Below are positions 20,452 through 53,511 of a stretch of DNA of 64,000 bases, piece by piece. The notes beneath the pieces are model-generated. The model ran no database searches, was not told where the DNA came from, and saw only the letters and a program-made list of their open reading frames with translations. The translations under genes and the position numbers were made by a program. The stretch lies in IMG/VR virus record IMGVR_UViG_3300022885_000003, positions 50,739 through 114,738 of that record, one strand, 5' to 3'. Source of the stretch: a virus. Each line of letters opens with the position of its first letter. Position 1 is the stretch's first letter.

Positions 20452-20459
20452 TATAAATA
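20452..20459 (+). promoter_or_regulatory. Late promoter TATAAATA
   Basis: Exact T4 late consensus. Confidence 0.7.
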
Positions 20460-20494
20460 AAACTATACAGATTAGCCAAGGAGTTAATATAACA

Positions 20495-21360: not shown

Positions 21361-21362
21361 GA

Positions 21363-21695: not shown

Positions 21696-21696
21696 T

Positions 21697-22373: not shown

Positions 22374-22428
22374 ATTGACTTATTATGACAATAATTGTTA
22401 TAATGATGTATAATTATGGAGATACTAA

Positions 22429-23247: not shown

Positions 23248-23257
23248 GGAAAACCAT

Positions 23258-24196: not shown

Positions 24197-24280
24197 AGAA
24201 ATATTCAATAATCTCGATGATGTCATCAAGGTAACACACCGGCGAACGTTAAGAACGTTTGTGAATAATAAGGAAAAGAA

Positions 24281-25301: not shown

Positions 25302-25412
25302 CACTAAGTATATTTATACTAGCAGAATTCAATTAAAACATAAGTTAAAGTTATTGAAACCAACCGATAAATATTCATAGCAGCCTATATTTAAAACCCC
25401 TTGAAGGAGGCT

Positions 25413-26147
25413 ATGATGAAGACCAAACGTTCTAAACGAGCAACTCGTCGTAATCCACGTGAAGACCGAAACTATTCGGCAACTAGCGAAAAACAATCAT
25501 TTAATGCACCAAAACATATAGCTTTGATTCCCCGTAATCTAAGTCAAGAACATTATGTCAATGCCTTAAAAGATGATACTAAGGCAATTGTTGTTGCAAC
25601 TGGGCCAGCAGGTTGTGGTAAAACCTGGTTAGGATCAATTGCAGCTATCAAAGCATATAACGAAGGACAATGTGATAAAATTGTAATTACTCGCCCTAAT
25701 CGCGCAGTAGATGATAAAGATATCGGGTTCCTCCCTGGTGACATTTTTAAGAAGATGATGCCATGGATGCTACCAATTATGGATGTATTCAAAGAATATT
25801 ATTCACCACAACAGGTAGAAAAAATGCTTGAGGACGAAATCATCGAGGTGTGCCCAATTGCGTATATTCGTGGTCGTACGTTCAAAAATGCATTTGTTAT
25901 TGTTGATGAAGCGCAAGGCACTACAAAAAATTCAATGTTGTCAATTCTAACACGAATTGGTGAAGGATCTAAGATGGTTGTAACAGGTGATGTCCGTCAA
26001 TCAGACATCGGCTCAAGCAACGGTCTACAGGATTTCATTAATCGCTTCGAGGGTTCAGATTTAATTTCAGTGATTAAATTTGAAAGAAAAGATGTTGAAC
26101 GTTCTCCAGTAGTTTCGGAAGTTTTACGAATTTACAAAGAAGAATAA
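25413..26147 (+). CDS. phoH: PhoH-like ATPase
   Basis: GPAGCGKT, IGFLPG, RGRTF, DEAQ, TGD..QSD. Confidence 0.95.
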   Translation: MMKTKRSKRATRRNPREDRNYSATSEKQSFNAPKHIALIPRNLSQEHYVNALKDDTKAIVVATGPAGCGKTWLGSIAAIKAYNEGQCDKIVITRPNRAVDDKDIGFLPGDIFKKMMPWMLPIMDVFKEYYSPQQVEKMLEDEIIEVCPIAYIRGRTFKNAFVIVDEAQGTTKNSMLSILTRIGEGSKMVVTGDVRQSDIGSSNGLQDFINRFEGSDLISVIKFERKDVERSPVVSEVLRIYKEE

Positions 26148-26171
26148 AGCCAAACATCTAAACTTTATTAG

Positions 26172-26207
26172 AACAGCGGGTGCTCAGTGCATCCGCTGTT
26201 TCTATTT
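26172..26207 (+). terminator. Intrinsic terminator after phoH
   Basis: aacagcgggtgc-tcagt-gcatccgctgtt then T-rich tail. Confidence 0.75.
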
Positions 26208-26247
26208 GCATAAATAATATAGTAAATAATGAATAAAAGGTTAGCCG

Positions 26248-26793
26248 ATGTCAGAATTAAAAAGCGATAATTCAGTTAGAAGTTTAACAGACAACGAGAG
26301 TCTTCTAGATGTTATGCTTCAAGTTGAAGATTATTTAGATTCTCTCGATTTATATGCTTTTGCCAATTGGGTTGAAGGTCAAGTAGTTGAAGGACCATTC
26401 ATCCATCGGTATTGGGTTAATCTTGCGTTGTTATATCCATATAAGAAAATGCCTGATCCACGTGGTGGTGAGAGATTGCTCAAATTTGGTACTAAGGTCA
26501 AGTACAAAAAGATTAAGCAAGAAGTCGCGAGCGAAATTCGAGATCAAGGTGATCTAGGTAGCGACGGTCGTCCCAAAATGGAAGAGAAATTAATGTGGAT
26601 TATCTATCTGAAAATTCCACGACGTTTCATTGAAGAGCTTGGTCTATGGGATCTTGATGATTCGGAAGAAGATATTAATGTTGAAGATGTTGAGGATGCT
26701 AAGGACGAAGGCGTCGACGACGAGACCGGTATTACCAATAGTGGTGATATGGAAGATAATGATAGTTTTGAAGAAGACGATTTTGAACTCTAA
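26248..26793 (+). CDS. Hypothetical late protein with acidic tail
   Basis: TAAATA at 26211; 181-aa ORF. Confidence 0.75.
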   Translation: MSELKSDNSVRSLTDNESLLDVMLQVEDYLDSLDLYAFANWVEGQVVEGPFIHRYWVNLALLYPYKKMPDPRGGERLLKFGTKVKYKKIKQEVASEIRDQGDLGSDGRPKMEEKLMWIIYLKIPRRFIEELGLWDLDDSEEDINVEDVEDAKDEGVDDETGITNSGDMEDNDSFEEDDFEL

Positions 26794-26807
26794 GGAGAAA
26801 TAACGAG

Positions 26808-27761
26808 ATGGCAACAGAAGTTCGAAGAAGAAGGGGATCAGAGGCTGAAAATGATGCCTTTACTGGTGCTGAAGGTGAAGTAACAATTATCATTGAGGGC
26901 GGCGGTGTTCCGGCAACTAATGTCATCACAGCCGTGGTTCATGATGGTATTGAAGTCGGTGGGTTTCAATTAGCGCGTAAAACATTGGATAATATTTCCG
27001 GTGTTCCCGCTGATCAAGCCACAGCAAGAACAAATCTTGATCTTGGGTCAGTTGCGACAATAGATACAGGAACCGCTATTGGTGAAGTTCCGGTTAACTC
27101 ATTTGCGGGTGCTTTGGGTTCGGCAGCGTATGAAGCGGTGGGCATCGTTGATCAAACCGTTCCAGTGTTATTAGATTCAGTTGTTAATCCAGGTACGGGA
27201 GCGTTACCAATTATTTCAGCAGAGAACCTAATTAATATTCCTACCACAACTGTTGACACTACTTCTAGAGCTAATAGTGCATTAACGACATATTTAACGT
27301 TATATCAGAATAACTTACCAGCACAGATTTTATCTGATGGATTCATGGATGCGTATGTAGGTTCTGCCTCAGCAACGGTATCTGGCGATGGTGTTTATAA
27401 TTCAGGAAACAAAACATTTGATGATGATGTTGGCGCTACGGGGTTCTTTCTAGATTCAAGCACCTTTACTGCTAAGGTCACTGATCCAGCGGCGGCGCAT
27501 ATTGCAATCCTTATGGCTGGTAGTACAACATTTACCGCTAGGGCAAGTCGGGATGCTGGTACGACATTTACTGATTTTACGCTTGTTAATAGGGGAACAG
27601 TTCTAGATGGTTCCGTAACATTGCTCACGGGGACCGTAGATATCTCAGCACAACCAGCAGGGTCTGGAATGCAGTATCAAATTGAAGTTCCAGCAGCGAA
27701 AGTTATCCAAATTCATGGAACTGCTTTATTCTGGCAGACAGAAGTATTCGTAGGAATCTAA
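26808..27761 (+). CDS. Virion fibre/structural protein
   Basis: N-terminal RRRRG...FTGAEGEV...VHDG...GG module and ARTNLDLG, both common in phage fibres. Confidence 0.75.
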   Translation: MATEVRRRRGSEAENDAFTGAEGEVTIIIEGGGVPATNVITAVVHDGIEVGGFQLARKTLDNISGVPADQATARTNLDLGSVATIDTGTAIGEVPVNSFAGALGSAAYEAVGIVDQTVPVLLDSVVNPGTGALPIISAENLINIPTTTVDTTSRANSALTTYLTLYQNNLPAQILSDGFMDAYVGSASATVSGDGVYNSGNKTFDDDVGATGFFLDSSTFTAKVTDPAAAHIAILMAGSTTFTARASRDAGTTFTDFTLVNRGTVLDGSVTLLTGTVDISAQPAGSGMQYQIEVPAAKVIQIHGTALFWQTEVFVGI

Positions 27762-27762
27762 T

Positions 27763-28479
27763 ATGAAACAATTAGTTGAAGGTTTAAAAACAGGAGATCT
27801 CGACGATCTTGTTCTAAATAGAATTTCAGTTGATGAATTTGAATCAAAAATTGATAATGAAAAAGCTATTGTTATTGGCTTTTTCGTCGATGATAAAGAG
27901 CCAGCAAACGATTTAAGAAACTTTTTAGATAAATCAGCAACAGAATTATTAGACTCGGATCGTTCCCCTGCACCGGATATCGACGGCCAATATATGGTTT
28001 TCGTCGAGTTTGAAAGAAACAGTTCTTTTCCAGAAGAAATGATAAAGATGGTAGAGACGATTGAAAATCTCGTCGATGTGGATGAATGGGTGTTCACAGT
28101 TTATAAAGATAAGGGTCCATTCCCATTAACGGAAGAAAATTTGAAAAAGCATGTTCGTTTAGAACCAAAAGAAGAAAAGGATGACTTTGAAGAAAGCTTC
28201 AAGTATTCTCTAGTCGACTCCGCTGATATAGAAAATAACATTTTGACATTATCCAAAGGGAGAATGGAAGAATCGTTTATTATTGTTAGAGCAGGCCCAT
28301 TTGATCAATTAGAAGTAGCCATTTCTGAATCAAATTATAATTTAAAGAATAGAAATTATATGAAAAACACACTTCGAGAAATGCTTGGAGAAAGTTGGGA
28401 CATTTCAGTCACTGATAAACAAATTGTTTTATATAATATAGTAACGGATTACGCTTTAATTCTTAAAGAGCATGATTAA
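27763..28479 (+). CDS. Hypothetical protein
   Basis: Starts MKQLVEG (possible short propeptide); coupled to the previous gene. Confidence 0.72.
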   Translation: MKQLVEGLKTGDLDDLVLNRISVDEFESKIDNEKAIVIGFFVDDKEPANDLRNFLDKSATELLDSDRSPAPDIDGQYMVFVEFERNSSFPEEMIKMVETIENLVDVDEWVFTVYKDKGPFPLTEENLKKHVRLEPKEEKDDFEESFKYSLVDSADIENNILTLSKGRMEESFIIVRAGPFDQLEVAISESNYNLKNRNYMKNTLREMLGESWDISVTDKQIVLYNIVTDYALILKEHD

Positions 28480-28518
28480 TACTTGATTTTTTTGTAAAAT
28501 CAATTTATAATAAACATT

Positions 28519-28908
28519 ATGGCATACATGTTTAATCCAGAAGACTTTAGATGTACGGGATCGTATAATAGGATTAGTTCATTTAATGTTGGAAAAAATG
28601 GTAACACCGCAACATATGGTGAATGGGCGAAATCTGTTGCGGATTTTTTACCACATCATATATTGTTGAATAATCAACAACTAGGTGATAGTTTTCATCA
28701 CAGACGATGGATTTCATCAAATTGTAATTATTGGTGGACAAATTCAAACCTTACATCTTCTTATCTACTAAGAAAAAATAAAGATATACCCGAAGTGGGC
28801 GGATCACATACACCATTGAATAGTTTGCTATCTATTGTCTCATCAAAAGATTATTATTTGTTTGAAGATAAAAATGATGCAATTATTTTTCGACTATATG
28901 CTTCATAA
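28519..28908 (+). CDS. Hypothetical protein, DA-x-x-FKL module family
   Basis: WISSNCNYWW...YLFEDKNDAIIFRLYAS; TATAAT 7 nt upstream of ATG. Confidence 0.78.
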   Translation: MAYMFNPEDFRCTGSYNRISSFNVGKNGNTATYGEWAKSVADFLPHHILLNNQQLGDSFHHRRWISSNCNYWWTNSNLTSSYLLRKNKDIPEVGGSHTPLNSLLSIVSSKDYYLFEDKNDAIIFRLYAS

Positions 28909-28921
28909 CCCGGGGAAGATT

Positions 28922-29257
28922 ATGGCTGTAAGAGTTTATCTTAACAACTCCAACGAAACCAAAGAAGCTATTGAATGGATTGAGCAGCGTGGTATCAAAT
29001 ATAAGATTCTACGTGGAAACAAAGCAGTCGATCCTGATACTCGAGTAAGGGCTCCTAATATGTGGAGATCTAGTCATCATTCTTATTTCGGTATTGAATC
29101 ATATACAGAAACTGAAAAGGATGAATTCTATCCAAGAATTAGAAACTCTATCTTGTATGAAAATGGCCCCAACACGGAACACAACAAAGACTATTCAGTT
29201 GGATTCGTATTATTTGATGAAAAAGAAGCGATCGAATTTAAACTTATTTACGGCTGA
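28922..29257 (+). CDS. Hypothetical protein, DA-x-x-FKL module family
   Basis: GGGGAAG SD; AIEWIE...[17 protein letters not shown]. Confidence 0.75.
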
Positions 29258-29301
29258 ACATAAATAAGATTAATAATGTATTTAACGCTCAAAGGAAAAT
29301 A

Positions 29302-29526
29302 ATGAGTAAACAAGATATAATTCTAGTTCAAGGTGTTATCACCAACGTTCTCCCCAATGCAATGTTTAAAGTAGAACTAGATGATTCAAAACACGTAATT
29401 ATCGGTCATATATCAGGAAAGATGCGGAAGAATAATATCAATATTCTTCTTGGTGACCGTGTTGATGTCGAAATGACACCATATGATCTTACCAAAGGCC
29501 GAATCGTTTTCCGATATAAGAAATAA
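29302..29526 (+). CDS. infA: Translation initiation factor IF-1
   Basis: [10 protein letters not shown]...[31 protein letters not shown]. Confidence 0.96.
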
Positions 29527-29561
29527 TTTAGATTAAAACGTTACTATCAGTAACGTTGTGC

Positions 29562-29861
29562 CTATCTTGATTTCTTAACAGCTGGTGCGGAAGCAATTCG
29601 GGCCATAACTGCTTCTTGATATGCTTTATTATTATTGAATTGTTTGACATATCCAAGAAATTCTTTGACATTAAATACATCCGTTGATTTAGCTCTTTCT
29701 GCTTTGGTTGACAACTCTTCGAGTTCATCATGTGCAGCAAAAAAATCACTAATTTCTTTTGTATTCAATTTCTCTTGGATTTTTCTAGCGTACATCTGCA
29801 TAGCCATCACGCGCTCTGCTTTGCTGAATGAACTAAAGTTACCCTTTTGATATCGTGCCAT
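29562..29861 (-). CDS. Hypothetical early protein
   Basis: AAGGGA SD; promoter upstream. Confidence 0.7.
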   Translation of the reverse strand: MARYQKGNFSSFSKAERVMAMQMYARKIQEKLNTKEISDFFAAHDELEELSTKAERAKSTDVFNVKEFLGYVKQFNNNKAYQEAVMARIASAPAVKKSR

Positions 29862-29888
29862 GTTCTTTTCCCTTTTTTAATGTAAAGT

Positions 29889-29917
29889 ATTATAACGCGG
29901 CATCAATCCATTGTCAA
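29889..29917 (-). promoter_or_regulatory. Sigma70-like early promoter
   Basis: TTGACA-17nt-TATAAT. Confidence 0.8.
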
Positions 29918-29920
29918 CAG

Positions 29921-30331
29921 CTATCTTTGGAAAGGTCGCGTTTTAACCATCTCCTTGAATTGCTCTATCGTTGACTTGTCTGTTAAGACTAAAGCATACG
30001 TGTGACCCATCAAATCAGCAGCGATAAGGCGGTGCCGTCCGTCTGTGAACTCTAAATATTTCCCATTAACAACATGAATTAGGCTTGGATTCATATAACC
30101 ACCAGATGTCCAATGTTCTTGTGCGCAGGATATACGTCGTGCTTTACCTGTTTCCCCGCCTGATGGGTCACCTATTGGTAAACGCTGCCACTGTGATGTA
30201 TGATTGAAAATATCGTTGATGTTTGCCCAAATCAGGATAAGGGACGGGTCTTCAAGATCTCTCTTGCCGGTACCATATGATTGTGATGGTTCAGTTGCCC
30301 ATCTTAATTCTTCGAGCTCTTTGAGTTTCAT
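29921..30331 (-). CDS. ParB/sulfiredoxin-like protein with MKLKELEE leader
   Basis: DGRHRLIAA motif; TAAATA 5 nt upstream of ATG. Confidence 0.75.
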   Translation of the reverse strand: MKLKELEELRWATEPSQSYGTGKRDLEDPSLILIWANINDIFNHTSQWQRLPIGDPSGGETGKARRISCAQEHWTSGGYMNPSLIHVVNGKYLEFTDGRHRLIAADLMGHTYALVLTDKSTIEQFKEMVKTRPFQR

Positions 30332-30335
30332 AAAA

Positions 30336-30770
30336 CTATTTAGTTTCTGGCTTATGCAAAGCGTTTATTCGTCTAATTTCATTTAGGACATTTCCAAAAT
30401 TCATGGCATCTGATTTTGGAACATCCGGAAAAACTTCTCGAATCCAGTTATCGATTTGTTCGTGATCAACAACAGTGGAACAACCATGATAGAAGCAAAT
30501 CCATCGACCTTCAATTTTTTGGAAGGACAGTTCAACCACTACTGGTCTCCCCGCAATTCTACCAACTTCCTGCATCCCGCCTTGTCGACTCCGATCATCC
30601 CAATGAACTCGATATTTCCTATCTTTTTCTAATTCATAACGAGCATGATCCGACTCAAGTGCTGTCTCCTTCCATAAGAAAAAAGAAGCATCGTTGGATC
30701 CGTCAACCAATCCTACAATTTGTGGTATAAGTTTTTGGCATTCATCATTTAGTGCGACAGAAACGTGCAT
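30336..30770 (-). CDS. Hypothetical protein
   Basis: Likely start ATG 30770 (MHVSVAL...), TAATG-coupled to the upstream remnant. Confidence 0.7.
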   Translation of the reverse strand: MHVSVALNDECQKLIPQIVGLVDGSNDASFFLWKETALESDHARYELEKDRKYRVHWDDRSRQGGMQEVGRIAGRPVVVELSFQKIEGRWICFYHGCSTVVDHEQIDNWIREVFPDVPKSDAMNFGNVLNEIRRINALHKPETK

Positions 30771-30935
30771 TATACTATCCCATGTTTCTTTAGGGTTGCT
30801 ACGAAATAATTGAGGCCTTCTTGTGTGTCGATGTGATAGCCGCCAACGACTTCCATTCCGCAAATTTTGTGATCCAGGACCCTTTCAGATGGATGCGGGC
30901 AACCGCAATCACCAGAAACACGGATATCCTTTCGA
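30770..30935 (-). pseudogene. C-terminal remnant of a gene (GRKDIRVSGDCGCPHP...YHIDTQEGLNYFVATLKKHGIV)
   Basis: Protein-like frame with stop coupled to the next ATG but no start of its own; abuts the truncated HRxDGPA gene. Confidence 0.5.
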
Positions 30936-31139
30936 CCATTCTGTTCTCCCATTTGGATATTCAACAGCAGGTCCATCAATTCGATGTAATTCCCCATTCA
31001 CATACCACTGTTTTGTTCCATCTGCGCATTCAAGAGCGGGGGCGCCTTCTCGATGAATGGATGGTATTAATGACTGATATTCATCGAAAGATATCCATTT
31101 GTTTCCATCTCTTGTCCATATATGAATATTCTTTTCCAT
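30909..31139 (-). pseudogene. Truncated HRxDGPA-repeat protein, duplicate of 31142-31591
   Basis: N-terminus near-identical to 31142-31591 (MEKNIHIWTRDG.KWIS.DEYQS); similarity ends abruptly at about 30935. Confidence 0.55.
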
Positions 31140-35499: not shown

Positions 35500-35527
35500 A
35501 TTATAACACCATTATGTAAAATGTCAA
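35500..35527 (-). promoter_or_regulatory. Sigma70-like promoter predicting a leaderless mRNA
   Basis: TTGACA-16-TATAAT, 6 nt before ATG 35493. Confidence 0.75.
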
Positions 35528-36195
35528 GCTAGTAATTGCGGCAGATAATGTTCCCATGACAATGGTATTGCATAATAACTATTTGGTCCAGTAATTAATA
35601 CCTCTTTTCCTTCTTCAATAGCCATTTCTAAATTTGTATTCATTGGTTCATACTGTTCAGTCATCAAATAAAGTTGATCCATAATAAATTTCTCCGCTGT
35701 TGGAAAATCGTTATGTGATTCATCATCGTCTAAGTTACGATATTCCTCGAGACTATCATCGATGATTGCGTTGAATACAAAATACATATAATCACCTTTA
35801 TTTTGGTTTTTGAACCAAGTATATTGGAATCCATTCATCGGAAACACAATAAACGGAGATCCCCAATCTTTGGCAATCTTCATACGGGGACTAGTAAAAA
35901 TTGAATTTCCTCGAACAGCCTTCATGCCTTGTCTATGCAACACATCGTCAATCATATCCTGGCGATTACTACTCATATCAACAGGTGTTCTATATTCCCA
36001 ATAATCTATTTTATTGCCCGTTGGTCGGATTCCATTTATTCCTCTATATAAAGCGTTTCCGTTTGCTTTACGATAAACATCAATGATTTCTGAACAATCA
36101 TTTTGAATTAGTTCGACAAATTCGTCTACACTTGAAACTATATCATCTAATTCTTCGGTATGTGGTGCTTCTTCTGTTAATTCATTGTATCTCAT
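35524..36195 (-). CDS. ADP-ribosyltransferase-like protein with MRYNELTE leader
   Basis: LYRGI...SIFTS...GKEVLI (R-S-E pattern); paralogous to the C-terminal domain of 39386-40715. Confidence 0.55.
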   Translation of the reverse strand: MRYNELTEEAPHTEELDDIVSSVDEFVELIQNDCSEIIDVYRKANGNALYRGINGIRPTGNKIDYWEYRTPVDMSSNRQDMIDDVLHRQGMKAVRGNSIFTSPRMKIAKDWGSPFIVFPMNGFQYTWFKNQNKGDYMYFVFNAIIDDSLEEYRNLDDDESHNDFPTAEKFIMDQLYLMTEQYEPMNTNLEMAIEEGKEVLITGPNSYYAIPLSWEHYLPQLLA

Positions 36196-36953
36196 TCGGT
36201 ATAGTCCTTAATAACGCGATATACAGTTTTTAGGAATTTTTTCCATGTTTCACCAGCAGCTGGATTGTTTCGCAACGAATTATAATATTCTTTCATAGTA
36301 TTTGAATACTGGATAGCATCTTTAATTCCATCCTGTGTTCTCAATTTGCTTAGAATAGTTTCCAAGTCTCTATCATAGGCAAATAGTAACTGATGAGCGG
36401 CATTATTGGCATAAGCTTCAATCTCAATTGGTTGCCCAAAATAATCTGTCCTCTCATTCCCTGTATTTGATAAACTTTTATCAAAACCATACATCTCTTT
36501 TTCTTGGTCTAATGGTCTTTTGTTTATTTGGATAAAATGTAAAACTTCGTGCGAGAACATTTGGGCCAGTAAATTTGAAATCTGTTCCACGTCTCCTTCA
36601 CCTTTAATAATATCAATAAAATGTTGCTTATCAACATAAAGCTCAATCGATAATTTATTAGTGGAATATTCCATATTTCCCATTTCATCTGCTTTATGAG
36701 TAAAAATAGTCAACATAATGGAAAATTCATCACTGAAATTAATTGTAAAGTAAGAATTTAAATCAATATTTTTTACTATTTTCCTAAACGCATTTTCCAA
36801 TTTATCAGATAAAAGTCTTGAGCAAGAAAGAATATTTCGATTATGAATATCACCTGTACCGAAATATTCATTTAAGACCTGCATAGAATGTTTATATGCT
36901 ACATCATAAAATGGTTTAGTATTTGTCCGATCCAATAATTCATATAAACGCAT
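36192..36953 (-). CDS. HEXXH zinc metallopeptidase-like protein with MRLYELLD leader
   Basis: SHEVLHFIQ...YF..PIEIEAYA. Confidence 0.7.
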   Translation of the reverse strand: MRLYELLDRTNTKPFYDVAYKHSMQVLNEYFGTGDIHNRNILSCSRLLSDKLENAFRKIVKNIDLNSYFTINFSDEFSIMLTIFTHKADEMGNMEYSTNKLSIELYVDKQHFIDIIKGEGDVEQISNLLAQMFSHEVLHFIQINKRPLDQEKEMYGFDKSLSNTGNERTDYFGQPIEIEAYANNAAHQLLFAYDRDLETILSKLRTQDGIKDAIQYSNTMKEYYNSLRNNPAAGETWKKFLKTVYRVIKDYTE

Positions 36954-38077
36954 TATAATTCTCTTATATAATTCTGTGCATCTCGTATATTGTCGAATCG
37001 TTCATTATTGATATAAAATTCCATTTTATCACGTTGATCTCTAAGTTGTCTTAATGCATATTTTTTTGTTTCAGGTGACATGGAATTAAATTCCATACCA
37101 AATTCTTGCGGGCGGTCATACACTCTTATCCATCCTCGATTTAACGCAACTTCCAAATAACCTTCTAAATCTAAATCTTCTGGGTCATCTACATATTGAT
37201 TTAAATGATCAGAGGCTACATTTTCGTGGTGGTAATCGTTTTCGTAATCAACATCGATTCTATTACCATTCTCATCTATCCACCACCCTTTCCAATCTTT
37301 AGTGATATTGAAGTTTTCGTCAATAACGGTATTTCCCATATTTTTTATATTGTCTGGATGCAATGGCCCCGGAACTGATTCACCACCATCGAAATATCTT
37401 AGTTCAACTGGTAACGTTTTCCAACCAAGTTTAGCTGCGGCCATAATACGATGATTTCCTTCACTTACCCAAGGTTGACCGTCATATCCAACAACGATAA
37501 ATGGAGCGTATTCCGAATCATTATCCTTAGACATTGGTGGTAGTCTATCATTGGCCTGCATGTAATTTGTTAGCCAATCCAAATCTTCTTGTCGAACGTT
37601 CTTCTGTTCGCCACTGGCTCCAGGTATATTTTTTAAAAGAGATACTGGTAAACGAACATAATCACTGAATGAGCCAGTCATTGTGCTCATAAAAGGCTTA
37701 CCGTGTACATTCCGACCCATTTCTTTGGCATATTCGATCTTTCCACGTAACCAATCACCGCCAGGGTTATCTACTCTAAGTTTTGTCTGATTGCCGCTAT
37801 TTTCATTTATATTTTCGGATACGGTGATCCTATTACCAACTTGTCCTTTCATATAATTAGAAGCGGATAATGCATCGTTGATAGGAGTGCCGTTAACCAT
37901 CCAGGATGAAACACCTCGATCGTTCCATTCGTTAACATCTTTAAGAATAGAATTAAATTCTTCTTCGATTATGATGCTTGGATCAAAGGTGATTGTAACT
38001 TCAGCCGTTGATGGATTAACATCAAATCCTTCGAAGATTGGTTCATATTTATAATCGAATAGTTCTTTTAAATACAT
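36953..38077 (-). CDS. Multidomain protein with ParB-like domain, MYLKELFD leader
   Basis: PFIVV...EGNHRIMAA..LG...LPV; C-terminal W-I...HH...GWIR domain. Confidence 0.72.
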   Translation of the reverse strand: MYLKELFDYKYEPIFEGFDVNPSTAEVTITFDPSIIIEEEFNSILKDVNEWNDRGVSSWMVNGTPINDALSASNYMKGQVGNRITVSENINENSGNQTKLRVDNPGGDWLRGKIEYAKEMGRNVHGKPFMSTMTGSFSDYVRLPVSLLKNIPGASGEQKNVRQEDLDWLTNYMQANDRLPPMSKDNDSEYAPFIVVGYDGQPWVSEGNHRIMAAAKLGWKTLPVELRYFDGGESVPGPLHPDNIKNMGNTVIDENFNITKDWKGWWIDENGNRIDVDYENDYHHENVASDHLNQYVDDPEDLDLEGYLEVALNRGWIRVYDRPQEFGMEFNSMSPETKKYALRQLRDQRDKMEFYINNERFDNIRDAQNYIREL

Positions 38078-38078
38078 A

Positions 38079-39383
38079 TCAAACCTTATATTTTGATTCA
38101 GCAGCTTCTAATATATTATATTTATATTCATCATACTTATCACGTTTCTTTCTATATTGTCTCTCAAGTTTGAACGCATTTTCAATTGCTGGTAATGATG
38201 AATCTAAATAAATTACGCCATCTCTTTCTTCGGTATATTTTAAATCTTGTATCGACTCGGAGAAATCACTTGCTGATTCCTCTATATCTAATCCATCACC
38301 ATCCCTAGTCACGATCTGCAACGATGCATAAAGAAGCATAGTTTCGGCTCTATTGTTTTCATAATCAATGGAATATAAAAATGCGTTGCCCTTTGCATCA
38401 TTTCCACGGATTAATGAATAACCCATAATATAATCTCTTGCACCCTCAAATGATATTTCGCTTTCGTAAATATCTTTATGATAAACAAGTGCGCCAGATT
38501 CAGTGTCCATAATCAACCAATTTTTGTAATCGTTTACATAATCAGTCTTTGGTTCATCTTTATATTCTGGTCTATCATCTAAATCTTTTATAATTTCCTT
38601 TACTCGACTAGATGATATCTTTCCAGATTTAACCAGTTTTGAATAAGTACCATCTGCTAATGCTTCTCGAACAAACTTGTTCCATACACGCTTTACTTGT
38701 GCAGATCCCGCATATGTGGTCCCACCAGTGTTCTTTTCTGGATAGCGTTCTCTATAAATTTTACCAAGCAATGTACCAAAACCATATGAACGGTATTCTT
38801 GCGCAACACTTACAAGAATTGCACCCCATTCATCTTGTGCAACAGCAACTTTTTGAGCATCGTTATTGAAGATTGCAAAATCGCCATTATCCTCTCTTAT
38901 TTGGAAAGATTGGCCCTTAATTTTAATATTTTGTAGCAGTTTTGAATATTTGCTACGTTGGGCTATTGCTTCTTTTTGCTTGAAATAAGCCATTGGATAC
39001 TTTACATATTTTATGATTAAATCACCGTTAACTAACCGATCTACATCGCGCTTCAATGCCCTGTCATCAAATCCCTTAATAATATATAAAACATTATCCA
39101 CGGTATAACCAATTAATGAATGACTATCCTTTTTGAATACACGCAAATCATTATCATTATGGGATTGAATAATTTCCTTATCCATTGCTTGACCAGCTTG
39201 TGGATCAACAATTTTCCCACCTAAATCAATTCTATTCATTTGGTCCAAATCCCAATTGTAAGCTTCATCTGAATGATGCTTTCCGCCAGGATTCATTACC
39301 TCCCAATATTCTTCCCAAGTCATAAGAGCTGGATTTTGTGGATGGCTTAAAGGAATTTTTTCAAATAATTGATGAAGATACAT
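38079..39383 (-). CDS. Protein with GNAT acetyltransferase-like region, MYLHQLFE leader
   Basis: VSVAQEYRSYGFGTLL (motif A, R-x-x-G-x-G) followed by T.AG...W. Confidence 0.6.
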   Translation of the reverse strand: MYLHQLFEKIPLSHPQNPALMTWEEYWEVMNPGGKHHSDEAYNWDLDQMNRIDLGGKIVDPQAGQAMDKEIIQSHNDNDLRVFKKDSHSLIGYTVDNVLYIIKGFDDRALKRDVDRLVNGDLIIKYVKYPMAYFKQKEAIAQRSKYSKLLQNIKIKGQSFQIREDNGDFAIFNNDAQKVAVAQDEWGAILVSVAQEYRSYGFGTLLGKIYRERYPEKNTGGTTYAGSAQVKRVWNKFVREALADGTYSKLVKSGKISSSRVKEIIKDLDDRPEYKDEPKTDYVNDYKNWLIMDTESGALVYHKDIYESEISFEGARDYIMGYSLIRGNDAKGNAFLYSIDYENNRAETMLLYASLQIVTRDGDGLDIEESASDFSESIQDLKYTEERDGVIYLDSSLPAIENAFKLERQYRKKRDKYDEYKYNILEAAESKYKV

Positions 39384-39385
39384 GA

Positions 39386-40715
39386 TTATTTTTCCTTTTG
39401 GGTTTTTCGAGAAGGAAACGGTTTTTCCTCACGGATTGTAAAATTGGCAACATATGATAACTCATCTGGTGATAATTTATATAGAACATCTTCCAAATCT
39501 ATATGTTCGTACAACCATGGATATATAACGTCATTCACCATAAAATCATTTATCCAAAGCACTTGTTTAGCTTTAAGCATAATCTCCATTTCTGATTCAA
39601 TTGCGGCTGCTAAATCATCATCTCTATAATTCTCTTTAATAAAGTATACTGCATAATCATAATTTAACAATAAACCATCCAAATTCTTACGACGAAGTTT
39701 AAATGTAATATCGAGTTTAGATTTATAATCTTCAACAAAATCGTCACTTCTACGTGGATCATCTAATAGATCCTGAAACCAAGCAATGCTTGATTCCCAG
39801 GTGGGATCGTGTTCTTCTCCATTCTCATCGGCGGATTTTATTTCGTCTTTGTAATCATTAAGCTCATCTTGCCATGTAGCTGCATATTTTTGATATATAT
39901 CACTAAATATCTCGCTTTTATCTTTATCACTAATATCCAACCATTTTTCTGCACTTTTATAATCATTGCTCAGCAATGTGAAGAAATCTTCAACCATTGG
40001 GCTCCAAGTAAAACTAAATTCTCCTAATGGGAAAACCGCGCCAAGGGTACCATATGCTCCTGCTTCTGTCATATCACCAGTGACAAAGAAGTCATCTCGG
40101 TTTGCTTTAAAACCAGCTTCAGAAAATGCTTTTATTAAATCATTGTGTATATTAAGTGGTGTATTCTTGGGGTTGGTTCGAGTTGAAAGATTTTTAATAA
40201 TTCCCATATCCGGGCTTAATATTTTGTTTGATGCTCCATGCCACATAATCTTGCCATTGGTTCGTATTAAGAATTGTTCCATTATATTCCAAATATCTTC
40301 ATCGATGTCCTGTAAATGTGCATAGGCTTCTTGAACCAAGTCATCTTGATCTTCAGTCAATCTTTCTTCAAATAATTCCGAATCATGAACTAAATGTTCC
40401 ACGTCGATAATTTTAGCTTCTGAAACTGAAAATTCTGTTTCCCTATCTTCCAAATTTCCTGTAATTAATTCAGTTGGATCAAATTCTAAAGTAAGAAGAA
40501 CTTCATTCTCAGAAAGCTCAGAATAATATGTTAAAACATATTCTTTATCTAAACTCATATAAATGCCATTACCACGCATTTGAATTGTTTCGCCGACACG
40601 AATAGGAAAGCTCAATCGTTTATTGGCACCTGCTAATAGCACGGCCTGTTTCAGGATCATATGCCATCACCTTATAAGCGATATTTTTTTGGTTATGAAG
40701 TTCTGTTAATTTCAT
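39386..40715 (-). CDS. Tandem ADP-ribosyltransferase-like protein with MKLTEL leader; interrupted by a 1-nt frameshift at about 40631
   Basis: ATG 40715 gives MKLTELHNQKNIAYKVMAYDPETGRAIS, which continues in the +1 frame GANKRLSF...GIYMS...ETEF; second domain WHGA...FFVTGD...EMEIML. Confidence 0.6.
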
Positions 40716-40720
40716 GGTTC

Positions 40721-42052
40721 TTATTCCTTCAATGCAAACACGATATGACCTTCGTCGATAATATCAAAATTTCTTTTGATATAATCATTGCCGTTGGCTA
40801 TCATAATATCCTGTAACAATTCAGCACAATCCATAACATATCTGTCTTCACCATCTATCCATTTTTTATCCAATTCCAATCGATGACTAGTTTTTGGGCT
40901 TAATCCTAATTCCTTCATAGCCGCATTATGAATAAGTTTAGCGGCGTCCCACCAATAAAATGACCCTGTATCGTATGCATATATTCCACGCAATTCTTGA
41001 TATCCGCTTTTATCTGCAAAACGCTTTAATTGTTTATATTCAGGATCAACCATTGCAACTACATCTTCATTACCGATATCCATCTTTTCAATACGATATT
41101 CATCTAGCTTTTCCGATGGCATCAATTTCTTAATTCTACCCTTAAAAATCTGCTGATCACCTTTATTTGTTTTGGCGATTGGTTGATTGTTCTTGTCTTT
41201 CTTAAAGCCCTTAATCTCTGCTTTGCGGTTTTTAAACTTACCAACCATAAGTGTGTCACCAACGTTAAGGGTTGGTAGCTTTAGGCTATCTTCATCTTCA
41301 TTGATGGTTTCTCGGTCTAAAATCTTAATCTGTTTATCAGAGAACGTAACCCATGTCGTTTGATCATCATCTTCTAATTTAAGACCATCATATCCACGTC
41401 CGATAAGCTCATCTGTTCCAAATTTGTCATATTCTTTCCAACCAGCAGGATTTTTAATGTCTAGTTCAGCGGTGATAATTGTACCTTTTGAACTAGCACC
41501 GACTCCTCCTTGCAGAATCAAATCTTTATTATCAGTAAACCATGTCAAAGTACCAATAGCAAATTCGTCATTAAATGAATCAAATGACGCGCCGGTGCCA
41601 TGATATGCAATAATTTTATCGTCCAAGGATTCTTTTAGATTCGAACCGGTGATTTTATCTTCAAATGAATGAACACGTCTCTCAACCTTTGCCACCCATT
41701 CTTTGGACGGACGTTTTCCTTTTGGGCCATCATAATATTGCAAAACTTTTTTTGGGTTGCTCTTGCTCACTAGTGCCCATTTTCCGTTAACCTGCTTTAA
41801 TGTTTCAGTCATGAAGCCTGGTTGTTCCGCTTTATCTAATCGATCATAATAGTCGATAAATTCATCCAAATGATCTAATGAAATTTCTCGAGCTTCTGCT
41901 TCATTATTGGTATGTTCTAGTTCCACCTTAATACCTTTAACAATTTCAGATTCGACCCGAGAAACACTGACACCATGTTTTTTTGCGATTTCCTCTGCTG
42001 ATGGTGTTTGTTTACCAATCAGATCCTTTTCATATAACTCAAATGCTCTCAT
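40721..42052 (-). CDS. Multidomain (polyvalent-like) protein with ART-like domain, MRAFELYE leader
   Basis: KGIKVELEHT...SLDHL.E..DYY domain; AYHGT..F..F...WFTD...GYDG (ART-like); further small domains. Confidence 0.72.
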   Translation of the reverse strand: MRAFELYEKDLIGKQTPSAEEIAKKHGVSVSRVESEIVKGIKVELEHTNNEAEAREISLDHLDEFIDYYDRLDKAEQPGFMTETLKQVNGKWALVSKSNPKKVLQYYDGPKGKRPSKEWVAKVERRVHSFEDKITGSNLKESLDDKIIAYHGTGASFDSFNDEFAIGTLTWFTDNKDLILQGGVGASSKGTIITAELDIKNPAGWKEYDKFGTDELIGRGYDGLKLEDDDQTTWVTFSDKQIKILDRETINEDEDSLKLPTLNVGDTLMVGKFKNRKAEIKGFKKDKNNQPIAKTNKGDQQIFKGRIKKLMPSEKLDEYRIEKMDIGNEDVVAMVDPEYKQLKRFADKSGYQELRGIYAYDTGSFYWWDAAKLIHNAAMKELGLSPKTSHRLELDKKWIDGEDRYVMDCAELLQDIMIANGNDYIKRNFDIIDEGHIVFALKE

Positions 42053-43146
42053 TGTTTTTCTTTCCTCGTTTCCTTCATATCATTTATTATCTCGGATACA
42101 AGCCTAGGTGGTATGTTAAACATTTGGGCGGTTTTATTTATTGATGAATTCTCACCCTTTTTCTCTAAATGCATTACCATATCAAAAATCCTTTTCTTTG
42201 TACCATATGATAATATATTCTTCTTAAATGAACGAGTAATTGCTGGTATACTCCACTCATCAACCGTTGATTTACGGTTGTCTTTAAGGAATTTTCTTAT
42301 TTCATGCTTACCATCTAATGTTTCGTAATTATTCTTCTCATCCGATACGTGATATGATTCACCACTTCGGTTATTGGTTATCAACCAACGCAATGCTTTT
42401 GCAACATCATGTAATGTCTTACCTTGTAAAATTGCTTGACCACTTGCATCATGATATCTTACCCATCCTTTATCAAATAATATTCTACCAACTGGGCTAT
42501 CAGGGTCGGTGGATTTAACATCTTCTAGTGACACGTTGTCAAATATTTTACCACTTAACCCCATCTTTTCTGGATGATCATACGCAAATTTTATATGGTG
42601 CGTTTCATTAGAATTTAAAGGAATGACCTTTGCATTTTTTGGATCGTTGGTCGGATTAATCCATAGTTTTTCATCGGCTATTGATTTAATGTGTGCTTCT
42701 CGAAACTGGGAAACCGAACTACGGTCTTTTTCTGGAAATCTACCATATCGTAGCCAATAATCCATGTCATACCCTTTTAGCTCAATCCAACTACGACTGG
42801 AAAACTCTTCATAAAAGGTATCAAATAAAATTGCTTCAAGTGGATAGATTTTATTGATTTGGCGTGCGGCTTTTAGGATTATCTCATTGCTATCGCCCTG
42901 CATAGATAGCGCAGTTGTTCCATCTCGAGACAACTCCATATTGCAACGGATCCATCCCATGTCACCAACAACTTCCATAAGAGTAGAACTCCAACCACCG
43001 ATTTGAGTGATCGTATCTTGATCCAAATCAAATAGTTCTGGATGATCTTTGACAATCTGAAAATGTTCTTGGTTTCGGGCCGGTATAATTCTGTTATCTT
43101 CTGAAAGATTTGGATTATACCAAAAACTTCTGGGTAGCTCAGTCAT
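42049..43146 (-). CDS. Protein with two W-x-N-P...H...GW(I/V)R domains
   Basis: FWYNP...EHFQI...GWIR and LWINP...HHIKF...GWVR. Confidence 0.72.
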   Translation of the reverse strand: MTELPRSFWYNPNLSEDNRIIPARNQEHFQIVKDHPELFDLDQDTITQIGGWSSTLMEVVGDMGWIRCNMELSRDGTTALSMQGDSNEIILKAARQINKIYPLEAILFDTFYEEFSSRSWIELKGYDMDYWLRYGRFPEKDRSSVSQFREAHIKSIADEKLWINPTNDPKNAKVIPLNSNETHHIKFAYDHPEKMGLSGKIFDNVSLEDVKSTDPDSPVGRILFDKGWVRYHDASGQAILQGKTLHDVAKALRWLITNNRSGESYHVSDEKNNYETLDGKHEIRKFLKDNRKSTVDEWSIPAITRSFKKNILSYGTKKRIFDMVMHLEKKGENSSINKTAQMFNIPPRLVSEIINDMKETRKEKQ

Positions 43147-43168
43147 AAATATCCCCTTTGTTATATAT

Positions 43169-43176
43169 TATTTATA
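43169..43176 (-). promoter_or_regulatory. Late promoter TATAAATA
   Basis: Exact T4 late consensus on the minus strand, upstream of 43146. Confidence 0.7.
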
Positions 43177-43203
43177 ATTTCAGGGAGGAGAGGTGTTAGG
43201 AAA

Positions 43204-44295
43204 TTATTTGGTTATCTTTGCAGCCAATTTCGCCGAATCCCACATGCTTGGTGGATTGCCATCCTTATCAAGTTTATTGCCGAATTTAGCTGCTTGGCGC
43301 TGTGTTTCGCCTTGTTTAACATCGACTGTGGTGTTAACACCAGGGACAATTAAACCATCTTCCATAATAACCGTAACATTATCAAATGTCAATTTAAAAT
43401 CTAAAACAAAATTTTCAGCATTCTGTTCATTATTAAACAATAATATTGCAATATTTGGTAATGGTGCATTATGATCTGGTGCAATGCCATCGAGATCAAT
43501 ATCATAATAACCCGGATCAATAGCAATACCATCGCTAGTTGCTGTAATAACAACGGATGGGTGTGAGCCTTTAATTACATTACGTAATATTCCATAATCA
43601 TCACGATAATCATCAATCCAATTATTAATTTCGGCATATTCGTTCTGAAATATTTCATTAATCTGAATATCTATCAAGCGTTTTTCAGATTCTGATAGCA
43701 TATTACTATATGCATTATTTGGCGCCCATTCCAATAGATCTTTTATTGAAGTATTATCTATTTGTTTAGACATTGCGCGAAAAAGGCTACCTTTTTTTTT
43801 AGTAAACTTAATTTCTTCTTTCAACGGTTTTGGTGACCAATCGCTGTTAAATGGTCTTATAAATTCATCGGCAAACTCTAGATCAAGGTTCCATTCTGGT
43901 AGATCCTCTACATCGCCGGAAAAATCATAACTTAAACTCAAATGCGGGATATATTCAGGGAAATCGTATTTAATATCGTTCTTATCTTTAATTTCCGTAT
44001 GACGCTTTGATAGAGCTGGTTCTGCGAAAGCAACAACTAACACATTATTATCTTCGCCAAAGAGTTTATACTCACAATCTTTAGCCTTTATTTTAAGAGC
44101 TGGATCATATGATTCAGGTGCTTCCGAAAATGTCTTTTCTTTATCAATGATAATAGTTGTGTGGAAATCATCATGCACATTTTCAATTTTATTCTTTTTA
44201 CACCATTCTACAATTTTATCATTGCATTCATCGGTGGGATTCATTCCCATAAATGTTCCTGAAGTTTTACCTTCTAATAGTTCTTGATATCTCAT
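43204..44295 (-). CDS. acb1: 2H phosphoesterase (anti-CBASS Acb1 / T4 57B-like) fused to further domains; MRYQELLE leader
   Basis: FHTTI and YIPHLSLSY (HxT/HxS), DFPEYIPH; GAGGGAG SD before ATG 44295. Confidence 0.72.
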   Translation of the reverse strand: MRYQELLEGKTSGTFMGMNPTDECNDKIVEWCKKNKIENVHDDFHTTIIIDKEKTFSEAPESYDPALKIKAKDCEYKLFGEDNNVLVVAFAEPALSKRHTEIKDKNDIKYDFPEYIPHLSLSYDFSGDVEDLPEWNLDLEFADEFIRPFNSDWSPKPLKEEIKFTKKKGSLFRAMSKQIDNTSIKDLLEWAPNNAYSNMLSESEKRLIDIQINEIFQNEYAEINNWIDDYRDDYGILRNVIKGSHPSVVITATSDGIAIDPGYYDIDLDGIAPDHNAPLPNIAILLFNNEQNAENFVLDFKLTFDNVTVIMEDGLIVPGVNTTVDVKQGETQRQAAKFGNKLDKDGNPPSMWDSAKLAAKITK

Positions 44296-50732: not shown

Positions 50733-51226
50733 AACTTGAACTACTTCCTGAGAACGACAAATTTCTAAAAACAGTTTGCCCACCGTTTGATTTCAAATCA
50801 ACTGATATAGATACTGTTGATCTCTCGAGAAGTATGCTTGAATTAATGCATGAAAACGACGGTATTGGGTTGGCTTGTCCACAAGTTGGCTTAAACCAAA
50901 GAATGTTTGTAATGGGGCTTGACGGGGTTGAACTTGTATGTTATAATCCTGAAATACTAAACGAATCGGGTAAAATTATAACGATCCAAGAAGGTTGTTT
51001 GAGTTATCCAGATTTGTTTATGAAGGTAAAAAGGATTGAATCTATCCAAATTCGATATCAAGATGTTTTAGGAAAGGTGAATGAGGATGAATTGACAGGA
51101 ATTTTTGCCAGGTGTTTCTTGCACGAATTAGATCACCTGAATGGTATTGTATTTTTAGATCGCGTTGGTCGAGTAACCACGCAAATGGCAAAACAGCGTA
51201 GACACAAACAAAGGAAGAAATCATAA
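50729..51226 (+). CDS. def: Peptide deformylase
   Basis: GIGLACPQ, EGCLS, HELDHL. Confidence 0.95.
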   Translation: MKLELLPENDKFLKTVCPPFDFKSTDIDTVDLSRSMLELMHENDGIGLACPQVGLNQRMFVMGLDGVELVCYNPEILNESGKIITIQEGCLSYPDLFMKVKRIESIQIRYQDVLGKVNEDELTGIFARCFLHELDHLNGIVFLDRVGRVTTQMAKQRRHKQRKKS

Positions 51227-53511
51227 TGACTATGCAACCACAATTTGATGTTTCGGAAGTTGAAAACACCCTTCGTAAAGCATCAGCCGATGCCAGTAAC
51301 AGGAACCAGCAATATGTTGTACTTGAGCATATTTTGCATGTTCTATTAACTGAAGAAACCGTTACGACGGTACTTGAAGATGCAAAGGTTGATGTTGTTG
51401 AATTGCAAAACAATGTCGAAACATATCTTTCATCAAACATGATCCCAGCAACAACTAGGCAGGTCCAGCCTAAAGAATCCGAAAATGTTATTATTGTTAT
51501 CCAGCAAACGGTTGCTCGTTGTCGCGCTGGTGGTCGGAATAAAGCAACATATTTTGATCTTCTCATTACTGTTTGTGAGCAGGACGGTTCCCACGCAGAA
51601 TACTTCTTCGGCCAGGCCGGCGGCGATCCAGCAACGTTGAAACAGGCTATCGTTGATACCACCGGTGAAGATGAACCGGATATGATTATGACCCCAATGG
51701 GGCCGATGCCCAATCCGAACGCCAAGAAGGCGGCGATGACGGAGAAGAAGGCGAAAGAAGTTCTTGAAAAGTTCTGCATGAATCTTAATGAACGCGCCAA
51801 GGACGCCAAAATCGATCCACTAATCGGGCGAGAAGACGAGATCCTGGACACCGTTCATATTGTTTCTCGACGCACTAAGAACAATGTTGTGCTAACCGGT
51901 GAACCCGGTGTTGGTAAGACGGCTATCGCTGAAGGGCTTGCAAAGCTTATCGTCGAGGAAAATGTTCCAGACACTGTAAAGGAAGCGGTTGTTTACAGTT
52001 TGAACATCGGCGCCCTAATTGCCGGTACCAAATATCGAGGAGAATTTGAAGAACGGATGCAGGACATTCTCGAAGCACTTGAGTTCGTTGATACCCCGAT
52101 CCTGTTTATTGACGAAATTCACATGATCATGGGCGCCGGGTCCGGTGGTAGTGGTAGCATGGACGTTGCTAATCTCTTGAAGCCAGCGTTGGCTAAGGGT
52201 TATTTGCGCTGTATCGGCTCCACTACGCTTGAAGAATTCCGAAAGCATTTTGAAAAGGACCGGGCACTGCTTCGTCGCTTTACAAAGGTCGCTGTTGAGG
52301 AGCCGTCAATTGACGACAGTATCAGGATCCTTGAAGGCCTCAAGTCCTACTATGAAGATTTCCATAAGGTAACGTATGATTCAGAAGGACTGGCTTTAGC
52401 TGTTAAATTGACAGACCGTTATATTACAAATCGTTTCCTTCCTGATAAGGCGATTGATGTTATGGACGCGGCTGGTGCCCGGCAGCGTATCCGGCCTGCC
52501 GAAGAACGTGTTGATATCATCACCTCGGAACTAATCGAAGACGAAGTTTCAAGACTTGCGAAAATTCCTCCTCAGACAGTTAAGGAAGATGAAGCGGCCA
52601 AGTTAGAACGACTCGGCGACGACCTTGAAAAGGTTGTGTTTGGTCAAGGGGATGCCCTACTTGCGTTGCAGGAAGCGGTCTATATGTCCAGGGCAGGGCT
52701 TCGAAATAAGCTCAAGACGCAAGGAGCGTTTTTGTTTACTGGACCAACTGGTGTTGGTAAGACTGAGTCAGCTAAACAGCTTGCCGCTACACTGGGTATT
52801 GAACTGGTTCGATTCGATATGTCGGAATACATGGAGAAGCATACCGTATCCAAGCTTATCGGTGCACCTCCAGGATATGTTGGCTTCGAAGATGGTGGTG
52901 CCGGGTCAGGACTATTGACCAACGAAATTGAGCAGCATCCACATTCTGTGCTATTGCTCGACGAAATTGAGAAGGCTCACCCAGACGTGATGAACGTTCT
53001 CCTACAAGTTATGGATAACGGTCGCCTTACCAATAGCGACGGTAAGACTGTTGATTTCCGGAACGTGATCTTGATTTTGACCACAAACCTTGGTGCAACT
53101 GAGCGAGATAAACCATCGATTGGCTTTACTTCAGCTGATAACGACGATGCCGATGTGAAGGTTATCGAGAAGGCATTGAGCCCAGAGTTCCGAAACCGGC
53201 TTGATGCAATCGTCCGCTTCAAGAAGCTTAGTCAGGATATCATGATCAAGGTGGTAAACAAGTTCTTGAAGGCAACCGCTGAACTCGCAGTTGAGCGAGA
53301 CGTGACGATCATAGTAACCGACGCTGGGCGTGAATGGCTTGCCGATAAGGGTTACGACCCAAAGATGGGCGCTCGGCCTCTAGAGCGAGTCATTAACAAT
53401 AACATCGTAAAGCCAATGAGTCGAGAAATGTTGTTCGGTCAGCTAGTCGGCGGCGGCACGGCAACTGTTGATCTTGCAGATGATGCACTAGTCATTACAT
53501 ATAGCAAGTAA
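51226..53511 (+). CDS. clpA: ATP-dependent Clp protease ATP-binding subunit ClpA-like
   Basis: Clp N-domain; two AAA+ modules ([16 protein letters not shown]); IGF ClpP-docking loop; no ClpB coiled coil. Confidence 0.93.

Follow-up and report, generated by a model that had tools for sequence, protein, structure and literature searches.

Putative prohead-protease sites at the joints of multi-module leader proteins in a T4-related jumbo phage

The 64,000 nucleotides analysed here (hereafter the window) are positions 50,739 to 114,738 of the IMG/VR virus record IMGVR_UViG_3300022885_000003, and their positions 36953-44295 hold six neighbouring genes, all on the minus strand, for products of 374, 434, 424, 443, 365 and 363 amino acids (aa), among them multi-module chains headed by a short N-terminal leader. 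Such chains are probably packaged into the phage head by means of one leader and cut at their joints into separate effectors. Sequence comparison supports the joints as real, non-random and derived from the cut site of the leader; from the relatives of this phage we infer that it has a gp21-type protease and, further, that the window's own joint sites are cut and the cleaved products ejected. As we picture it, the leader would dock the protein onto the scaffolding core of the prohead, after which a gp21-type prohead protease would cut after the Glu of [LIV]-x-E. Fusion of leader-plus-module units would have given rise to the multi-module proteins of 36953-44295, the inner leaders losing their targeting half at the joints and keeping a hydrophobic P3 and the P1 Glu behind a Lys/Pro/Gly-rich linker. 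A single N-terminal leader would thus load the entire chain, to be divided inside the head into small effectors (an ADP-ribosyltransferase, a ParB-like module, Acb1 and others) that could exit with the DNA.

The record itself (114,738 bp, with a completeness rating of 31%) has as its closest phages, by protein comparison, Agrobacterium phage Atu_ph07 (490 kb), Salicola phage SCTP-2 and Sinorhizobium phage Phosso, and no phage genome matched the region in megablast. Judged from these proteins and from placement markers (a ClpA-like ATPase, a gp44-type clamp loader and gp10-type baseplate proteins), it is part of a T4-related jumbo myovirus near Atu_ph07 and SCTP-2.

The leader family and the module joints

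A leader of the form M-[RK]-x-x-E-[LF]-x-E, 8-9 residues long, starts about 28 genes of the 115-kb record (for example MRAIELYE, MRYQELLE and MRSYELFE), and within the cluster it reads MRAFELYE, MRYQELLE, MYLHQLFE, MRYNELTE or MYLKE/MRLYE. In sequence this family resembles the capsid-targeting sequence (CTS) of T4, MKTYQEFIAE (PMC8442874), in which targeting is governed by residues 4 and 7 and gp21 cutting by residues 8 and 10 (PMC9026906): it is N-terminal, about 8-10 residues long, MKTYQEFIAE-like, and ends in [LI]-x-E. Literature searches on CTS in jumbo phages and on Atu_ph07 turned up no account of the leader family or the joint sites.

A preliminary description of the window had proposed that thirteen tetrapeptides of the hydrophobic-x-Glu type mark domain junctions in these proteins. 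All thirteen are present in the minus-strand proteins for which it named them, and 11 of the 13 fall at module borders defined independently of the motif; the other two do not hold as junctions, LLE/G being the leader itself and PIFE/G no joint (a slash marks the putative cut throughout). The proteins and sites are as follows.

36953..38077, minus strand: 374-aa protein (stand-alone homologues, AlphaFold, Foldseek)
38030..38041, minus strand: PIFE/G (E16) of the 374-aa protein, in the coil that links leader helix 2-7 to strand 18-21 (AlphaFold)
37802..37813, minus strand: joint NINE/N (E92), placed by MAFFT and inside the low-confidence linker 81-95
37316..37327, minus strand: joint VIDE/N (E254); stand-alone ParB-like homologues stop at residues 244-247
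39386..40660, minus strand: 424-aa body, an N-module without assignment plus a 'YRG/WHG' family module (paralogue BLAST; phrog_11975)
40352..40363, minus strand: joint RLTE/D (E103), aligned on a paralogue leader
40721..42052, minus strand: 443-aa polyvalent protein of five modules (Pfam and stand-alone homologues)
41804..41815, minus strand: joint FMTE/T (E83), on which the leader Glu of 14 of 14 leader-bearing stand-alone homologues maps exactly
41630..41641, minus strand: joint NLKE/S (E141); the leaders of stand-alone ART proteins map to 141-142
41297..41308, minus strand: joint TINE/D (E252), from stand-alone SH3-like homologues
41099..41110, minus strand: joint KLDE/Y (E318); the leader MRIYEIINE/YKIEK of protein P0002 aligns on SEKLDE/YRIEK
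42049..43146, minus strand: 365-aa protein without leader, two 'WxNP...GWVR' module copies and a short C-terminal tail
42697..42708, minus strand: joint QFRE/A (E150), the conserved C-terminal end of the repeated module
42256..42267, minus strand: joint TVDE/W (E297), the equivalent site where the second module copy ends, with weaker support
43204..44295, minus strand: 363-aa protein, counted from the inner start MRYQELLE
43816..43827, minus strand: joint PLKE/E (E160), directly after the complete Acb1 profile match
43360..43371, minus strand: joint VIME/D (E312), on which the leader Glu of 11 stand-alone proteins maps exactly

Stand-alone homologues of most modules, found by metagenome searches limited to shorter proteins, provide the main comparison. 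Seven window joints (E83, E141, E252, E318, E312, E92 and E103) align on leader ends, the motif standing exactly on the independently predicted position at six of them, and 126 of the 140 stand-alone proteins that map to internal positions begin directly with the leader.

The 443-aa protein runs from its leader MRAFELYE/ through DUF5661 (Pfam match at residues 19-77), a small 'TLKQVNGKW' module, ART-PolyVal (Pfam match at residues 148-205) and an SH3-like 'GKFKNRKA' module to a C-terminal module, and each of these is also found as a stand-alone protein, with the leader on most copies. Module 2, for instance, reads MRAHEFIVE/TLKKV when it stands alone and QPGFMTE/TLKQV inside the chain, and the ART module MIKLKDLLLE/SNKPLIVYHGTG or MIKLKSLISE/G as against the internal GSNLKE/SLDDKIIAYHGTG. 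For the SH3-like module, with the internal joint sequence RETINE/DEDSLKLP, nine stand-alone proteins with leaders of 8-9 residues (MRAFEFLAE/DKDTL) map exactly on E252 and 17 with leaders of 5 residues (MKLSE/LQLP) map 4 residues downstream; the [LI]-D-E after this module recurs in L007, L008, P0017 and P0052. Four of the eight non-leader [LIVMF]-x-E in the protein fall exactly on the four predicted joints.

In the 374-aa protein the order is leader MYLKE/LFD, N-terminal module, ParB/sulfiredoxin-like module (about 50 stand-alone homologues) and 'WWIDENG..GWIRV' module. The stand-alone ParB-like sequence MRAKEFITE/SQPSLKVDNPGG corresponds to the internal SENINE/NSGNQTKLRVDNPGG, and MAFFT splits the stand-alone leader MRAKEFITE/, laying 'ITE' on the internal INE and 'MRAKEF' on the N-terminus of the 374-aa protein. 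The preliminary description had suggested predicted structures as a means of finding linkers. An AlphaFold model based on a ParB-module alignment has a mean predicted local distance difference test score (pLDDT) of 74, rising above 93 for about residues 101-240 (10-residue block means), and matches sulfiredoxin and ParB N-domains in Foldseek; its low-confidence segments are 81-95, with E92 inside, and 253-265, at the edge of which E254 closes helix 241-254. By contrast, a single-sequence model of the 443-aa protein had a pLDDT of 35 and was of no use for defining linkers, and a MAFFT alignment of that protein with its short homologues was misaligned, the N-terminal leaders being pulled onto the query's own leader, and was left unused for folding. 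As for PIFE/G, which comes after the leader helix and before the first strand and found no comparative support, it was ruled out as a domain joint and may be a second cut within an extended leader.

The 363-aa protein consists of the leader MRYQELLE/, Acb1, a middle module without assignment and a 'GLIVPGVNTTVDV' C-terminal module. Acb1 (Pfam E-value 2.6e-19, residues 13-155) is a 2H phosphoesterase of the T4 gp57B family, directed against CBASS (cyclic-oligonucleotide-based anti-phage signalling system), and tblastn of the protein matches T4-type gp57B genes. The stand-alone form of the C-terminal module reads MKIFDVLSE/DGKIVPGVNT, against TVIME/DGLIVPGVN within the chain. For the module that follows PLKE/E no leader-bearing homologue was found, and the domain border is the sole support of that joint. 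An Acb1-type anti-CBASS phosphodiesterase stands directly behind a packaging leader in 43204-44295, which would imply that the enzyme is delivered with the DNA instead of being synthesised after infection.

Three joints lie in less regular genes. At RLTE/D, the sequence ELFEERLTED of the 424-aa body matches, residue for residue, the leader MRFNEIISED of a paralogue (genome 20518-21123), the 'YRG/WHG' module being paralogous to leader-bearing single-module genes. At QFRE/A, which like TVDE/W closes a copy of the 'WxNP...GWVR' module, the module tail '...S.QFRE' is present in six unrelated architectures (P0218, P0221, P0229, P0234, P0235 and L007), in which unrelated sequence or the end of the protein comes next.

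Could the agreement be a coincidence, with a frequent tripeptide and borders picked by eye? The preliminary description had itself cautioned that the tripeptide is common, and rightly so, because [LIVMF]-x-E occurs 75 times in the 2879 residues of eight proteins, against 64.7 +/- 6.6 in shuffled sequences, so that the count is uninformative and placement alone informs. A pool of 613 proteins, drawn from this record, from Atu_ph07 and SCTP-2, from two related contigs and from metagenomic matches, was examined for joints, defined as places where the N-terminus of a leader-bearing protein aligns inside another protein, with at least two such homologues required. Single-support clusters and SCTP-2 proteins were excluded from the joint test, a first pass having been polluted by 'NPSEE' repeat proteins of SCTP-2 and by one truncated open reading frame (ORF; P0001). 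In this pool the motif lies no more than 4 residues from the cut that the leader predicts at 42 of 53 joints (79%), where chance would give about 16%, and exactly on it at 19 of 53 (chance 2.6%). This placement, together with the six exact window joints, refutes coincidence, to which we assign next to no weight.

The same pool bears on a second alternative, according to which neighbouring leader genes simply fused and the inner leaders are remnants that have not yet decayed, the proteins being packaged and acting intact. The leader genes are packed tightly in arrays, with overlaps of 1-4 nt, many of them stop/start overlaps that would ease fusion by read-through. The decay, however, is selective. 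Upstream of P3 the joints are Lys/Pro/Gly-rich, their likeness to the leader is gone and P4-P6 are not conserved, whereas P3 and P1, the positions of T4 processing, are kept at that same 79% of joints. Retention of these two residues while the targeting half is lost fits selection for cutting, unlike a decaying fossil. Moreover, identity between the modules and their stand-alone counterparts is only 30-60%, so that the fusions are not recent.

The prohead protease and the virion proteins of Atu_ph07

A Peptidase_S77 of the gp21 type is encoded by Atu_ph07 (E-value 2.4e-22) and by SCTP-2 (9.4e-25), and the prohead protease of the former is also listed in Table S3 of PMC6102473. The published virion proteome of Atu_ph07 gives a gel band, a mass and a coverage for each protein; its entries were mapped to ORFs by mass and gene order, and the gel bands were calibrated on other virion proteins of this phage. 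Virion proteins account for 22 of the 36 leader-like ORFs and for 118 of the 678 others (odds ratio 7.5, p = 2e-8), and they include gp377, the orthologue of 38079-39383. Four multi-module leader proteins of the virion peak well below their full size, at or near that of single modules.

gp483, 33.7 kDa, a tandem duplicate with the N-terminus MLLSE/LFDT: joint KKNLTE/LFDT, predicted pieces 16.3 and 16.9 kDa, peak at about 15 kDa
gp482, 31.7 kDa: joint KIKVE/AFDS, predicted pieces 14.6 and 16.1 kDa, peak at about 15 kDa
gp63, 41.4 kDa: joint GSITE/TAEL, predicted C-terminal piece 28.0 kDa, peak at about 29 kDa
gp53, 87 kDa: joints YLKE/, NLTE/LFDT and NLNE/LFDT, predicted pieces 14-26 kDa, peak at about 21 kDa

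For gp482 the cut at KIKVE/AFDS is assumed, its P3 being Lys and therefore outside the [LIVMF]-x-E rule. By comparison, gp54, with two modules and no motif at the joint, peaks at its full size. This migration at module size matches what the processing of leader-headed chains predicts, and lends it indirect support by analogy.

The fusion-remnant alternative finds evidence here on both sides. The finding of full-length proteins in virions, which the preliminary description had named as a refutation, bears in this data set, limited to Atu_ph07, on gp54, gp377 and gp394, and the virion RNA polymerase of N4, a polyvalent protein, is likewise packaged unprocessed (PMC5512222). Against it stand the four proteins just listed. 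All in all, we regard intact packaging of fused proteins as unlikely.

Several observations nonetheless count against the cutting of leader-headed chains at their joints. Both gp377 (49.7 kDa, gel band 4) and gp394 remain full length despite an internal [LI]-x-E, so that the internal motif is not sufficient for cutting and is at best necessary. The evidence from Atu_ph07 consists of the gel slice of peak abundance, not of mapped termini, and the proteins occur in other slices too; the 24-26-kDa pieces predicted for gp53 lie slightly above its band at about 21 kDa; and no cut Atu_ph07 protein is orthologous to the polyproteins of the window. No Peptidase_S77 gene is present in the 31%-complete record; its search with PF03420 gave nothing, a result that is uninformative because control genomes were likewise silent and the record is a fragment. 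Among the pooled joints about 20% lack the motif, and P3 is Val at 17 of the 42 motif joints, where leaders have Leu or Ile, as does the T4 rule (I/L)-x-E that the preliminary description had cited. The nominal p of the pooled test (1e-17 to 1e-24) is overstated, the joints being phylogenetically non-independent; the effect of motif placement in the pool is large all the same.

If the joints are cut, another enzyme might do it: a co-packaged HExxH protein (36192-36953), or a host or Clp-type protease after ejection. The former carries a leader and belongs to the same cluster, processing of polyvalent proteins by MPTase domains has been predicted by Iyer et al. (PMC5512222), and the phage encodes a ClpA-like ATPase (51226-53511). 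On the other hand, an invariant Glu at P1 and a hydrophobic residue at P3 together form the signature of T4 gp21, the N-terminal leader, which gp21 removes in T4, ends in the identical tripeptide, and the HExxH protein has no family assignment. We therefore consider cleavage by an enzyme other than a gp21-type protease quite improbable.

Known processing systems and the meaning of a packaged chain

The closest parallel to these leader-headed chains is offered in T4 by its internal proteins, namely IPI, IPII and IPIII, and by Alt, whose leaders also end in [LI]-x-E (MKTYQEFIAE, against MRAHEFIVE and MRAIELYE here) and stand before unrelated cargo, including an ADP-ribosyltransferase; among the relatives of this phage a gp21-type protease is encoded and, in one of them, cargo is present in the virion. 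T4, however, has a handful of such proteins, the internal proteins being cut once, whereas about 28 are seen here in a third of a genome, and several of these consist of 2-5 unrelated modules with a remnant of the cut site at the joints. Multiple [LI]-x-E sites are cut by gp21 in T4 gp22, gp67 and gp68 too, but the resulting fragments are waste that leaves the head, while those of the window would be retained as folded effector domains. In phiKZ, 201phi2-1 and SPN3US, many proteins of the head and of ejection are cleaved after Glu by a gp21-related protease, some of them at several sites, with the motif S/A/G-x-E, unlike the [LIVMF]-x-E of the window; a short shared leader family is not described in the phiKZ-like phages, and the cuts identified so far in SPN3US yield N-terminal propeptides (plus self-cleavage of the protease) and do not separate unrelated enzymes.

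With the polyvalent proteins (PMC5512222) the window's chains have in common that several unrelated effector domains (ART-PolyVal, DUF5661, ParB-like) are joined in one polypeptide with predicted delivery alongside the DNA, and that modules are shuffled among proteins; at least two unrelated effector-type domains from the shared pool are present in 40721-42052, 43204-44295 and 36953-38077. Processing of polyvalent proteins, if any, was predicted to proceed through their own zincin (MPTase) domains. The window's joints carry instead the prohead-protease motif of a CTS leader, with no protease domain in the chain: the multi-module chains have no HExxH, the sole HExxH being in the separate gene 36192-36953, and a peptidase of its own is common but not obligatory in the polyvalent family. 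The combination of T4 CTS/gp21 processing with polyvalent proteins is a new variant, the component parts of which are known.

For T4-related jumbo phages at large (Atu_ph07, SCTP-2, this phage and many uncultured ones), we lean slightly towards a plug-and-play head-cargo system that works through the CTS-like leader, in which fusions would keep only the residues recognised by the protease and the prohead protease would act as a true polyprotein processor, releasing stoichiometric anti-defence and host-takeover enzymes, a pre-loaded Acb1 among them, that are injected with the DNA. If this is true, giant phages could load dozens of different enzymes into the head with one short tag, and a leader plus a module, or a joint motif plus a module, could be read as packaged and injected cargo, so that many jumbo-phage genes now called "hypothetical" could be given a location and a time of action. 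Enzymes of counter-defence, such as Acb1, would be in the cell as early as the first second of infection, and the chains would constitute a natural design by which one fusion loads T4-type capsids with several proteins. Cultured Atu_ph07, for which virion mass-spectrometry data already exist, offers a test of the idea.

Irregular genes, neighbours and related elements

The preliminary description had also proposed that one leader ferries several effectors into the head, which agrees with the match of the leaders to the T4 CTS and with the leader-derived joints, although two genes of the block do not follow the pattern: 42049-43146 is leaderless and 39386-40715 frame-shifted. The former, the only leaderless gene of the block, has its own ribosome-binding site (GGGGA); its homologues have leaders (MRYLELLES/TTLPRSFW), and the 365-aa protein begins at the TELPRSFW position, exactly at the point where those leaders stop. 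One copy of the T4-type late promoter TATAAATA lies 30 nt upstream of it (region 43147-43203), but with 9 copies in the window this octamer occurs at about the frequency estimated from base composition, that is, about chance, and was not counted as evidence. Another leaderless protein, of 1255 aa, is encoded by ORF 2305-6072 of L007 (IMGVR_UViG_3300023210_000034); its modules are homologous to four window proteins, and [LIVM]-x-E stands at most of its joints (KLDE/V, QFQE/S, MVAE/G and LVTE/D).

According to a three-frame translation, the 1330 nt of 39386-40715 are not a single open frame, the leader lying in an ORF of its own, one frame off the 424-aa body. The shift must fall within about 40620-40652, where there is one base too many and, at the likely site, no homopolymer. 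An assembly error, a pseudogene or programmed frameshifting could each account for it; orthologues, sought in order to place the shift, were found neither in IMG/VR nor in phage genomes. The remaining features are listed below.

35524..36195, minus strand: leader protein of 223 aa (MRYNELTE/), with a single module of the 'YRG' family (translation, paralogue comparison)
36192..36953, minus strand: 253-aa leader protein (MRLYE/LLD) with an HExxH zinc-protease motif (translation)
38079..39383, minus strand: 434-aa leader protein (MYLHQLFE/), 31% identical to Atu_ph07 AUZ95136, which is gp377
40623..40715, minus strand: orphan leader ORF MKLTELHNQKNIAYKVMAYDPETGRAISRCQ (MKLTELHNQ...RCQ, then a stop), with its ATG at 40715
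51226-53511: ClpA-like ATPase

The first two are leader genes beyond the block of six. The 253-aa protein matched no Pfam entry and no family; its HEVLH and a Glu further downstream are zincin-like and make it a candidate packaged metalloprotease. An HExxH motif also occurs, next to an ART-PolyVal 58% identical to that of the window, in the 2220-aa polyvalent protein (ORF 7388-14050) of L006 (IMGVR_UViG_3300024265_000023), a complete 41.9-kb phage with terminal repeats in whose genome no Peptidase_S77 was found.

Outside the window, genome positions 18905-30963 (L001-L002) hold about 20 consecutive plus-strand genes, every one of them with a leader, including a 538-aa fusion of a P-loop kinase-like and a 'YRG' module with the joint RRNKLNE/D at the position equivalent to RLTE/D.

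A second N-terminal motif, '..R-[KQ]-[FYW]-[MIL]-N-[IL]-L-E' (MKTNNLRQWMNILESK, MSDLRKFINILN, MNDIRKYMSLLEN), is carried by 12912-13451 (plus strand) of the window, by gp33, gp205, gp206 and gp594 of Atu_ph07 and by genes 458 and 460 of SCTP-2. Those of Atu_ph07 are virion proteins; two are encoded beside the gene of the prohead protease, and gp205 and gp594 migrate below their full size; proteins with this motif may represent another class of core- or scaffold-targeted protease substrates.

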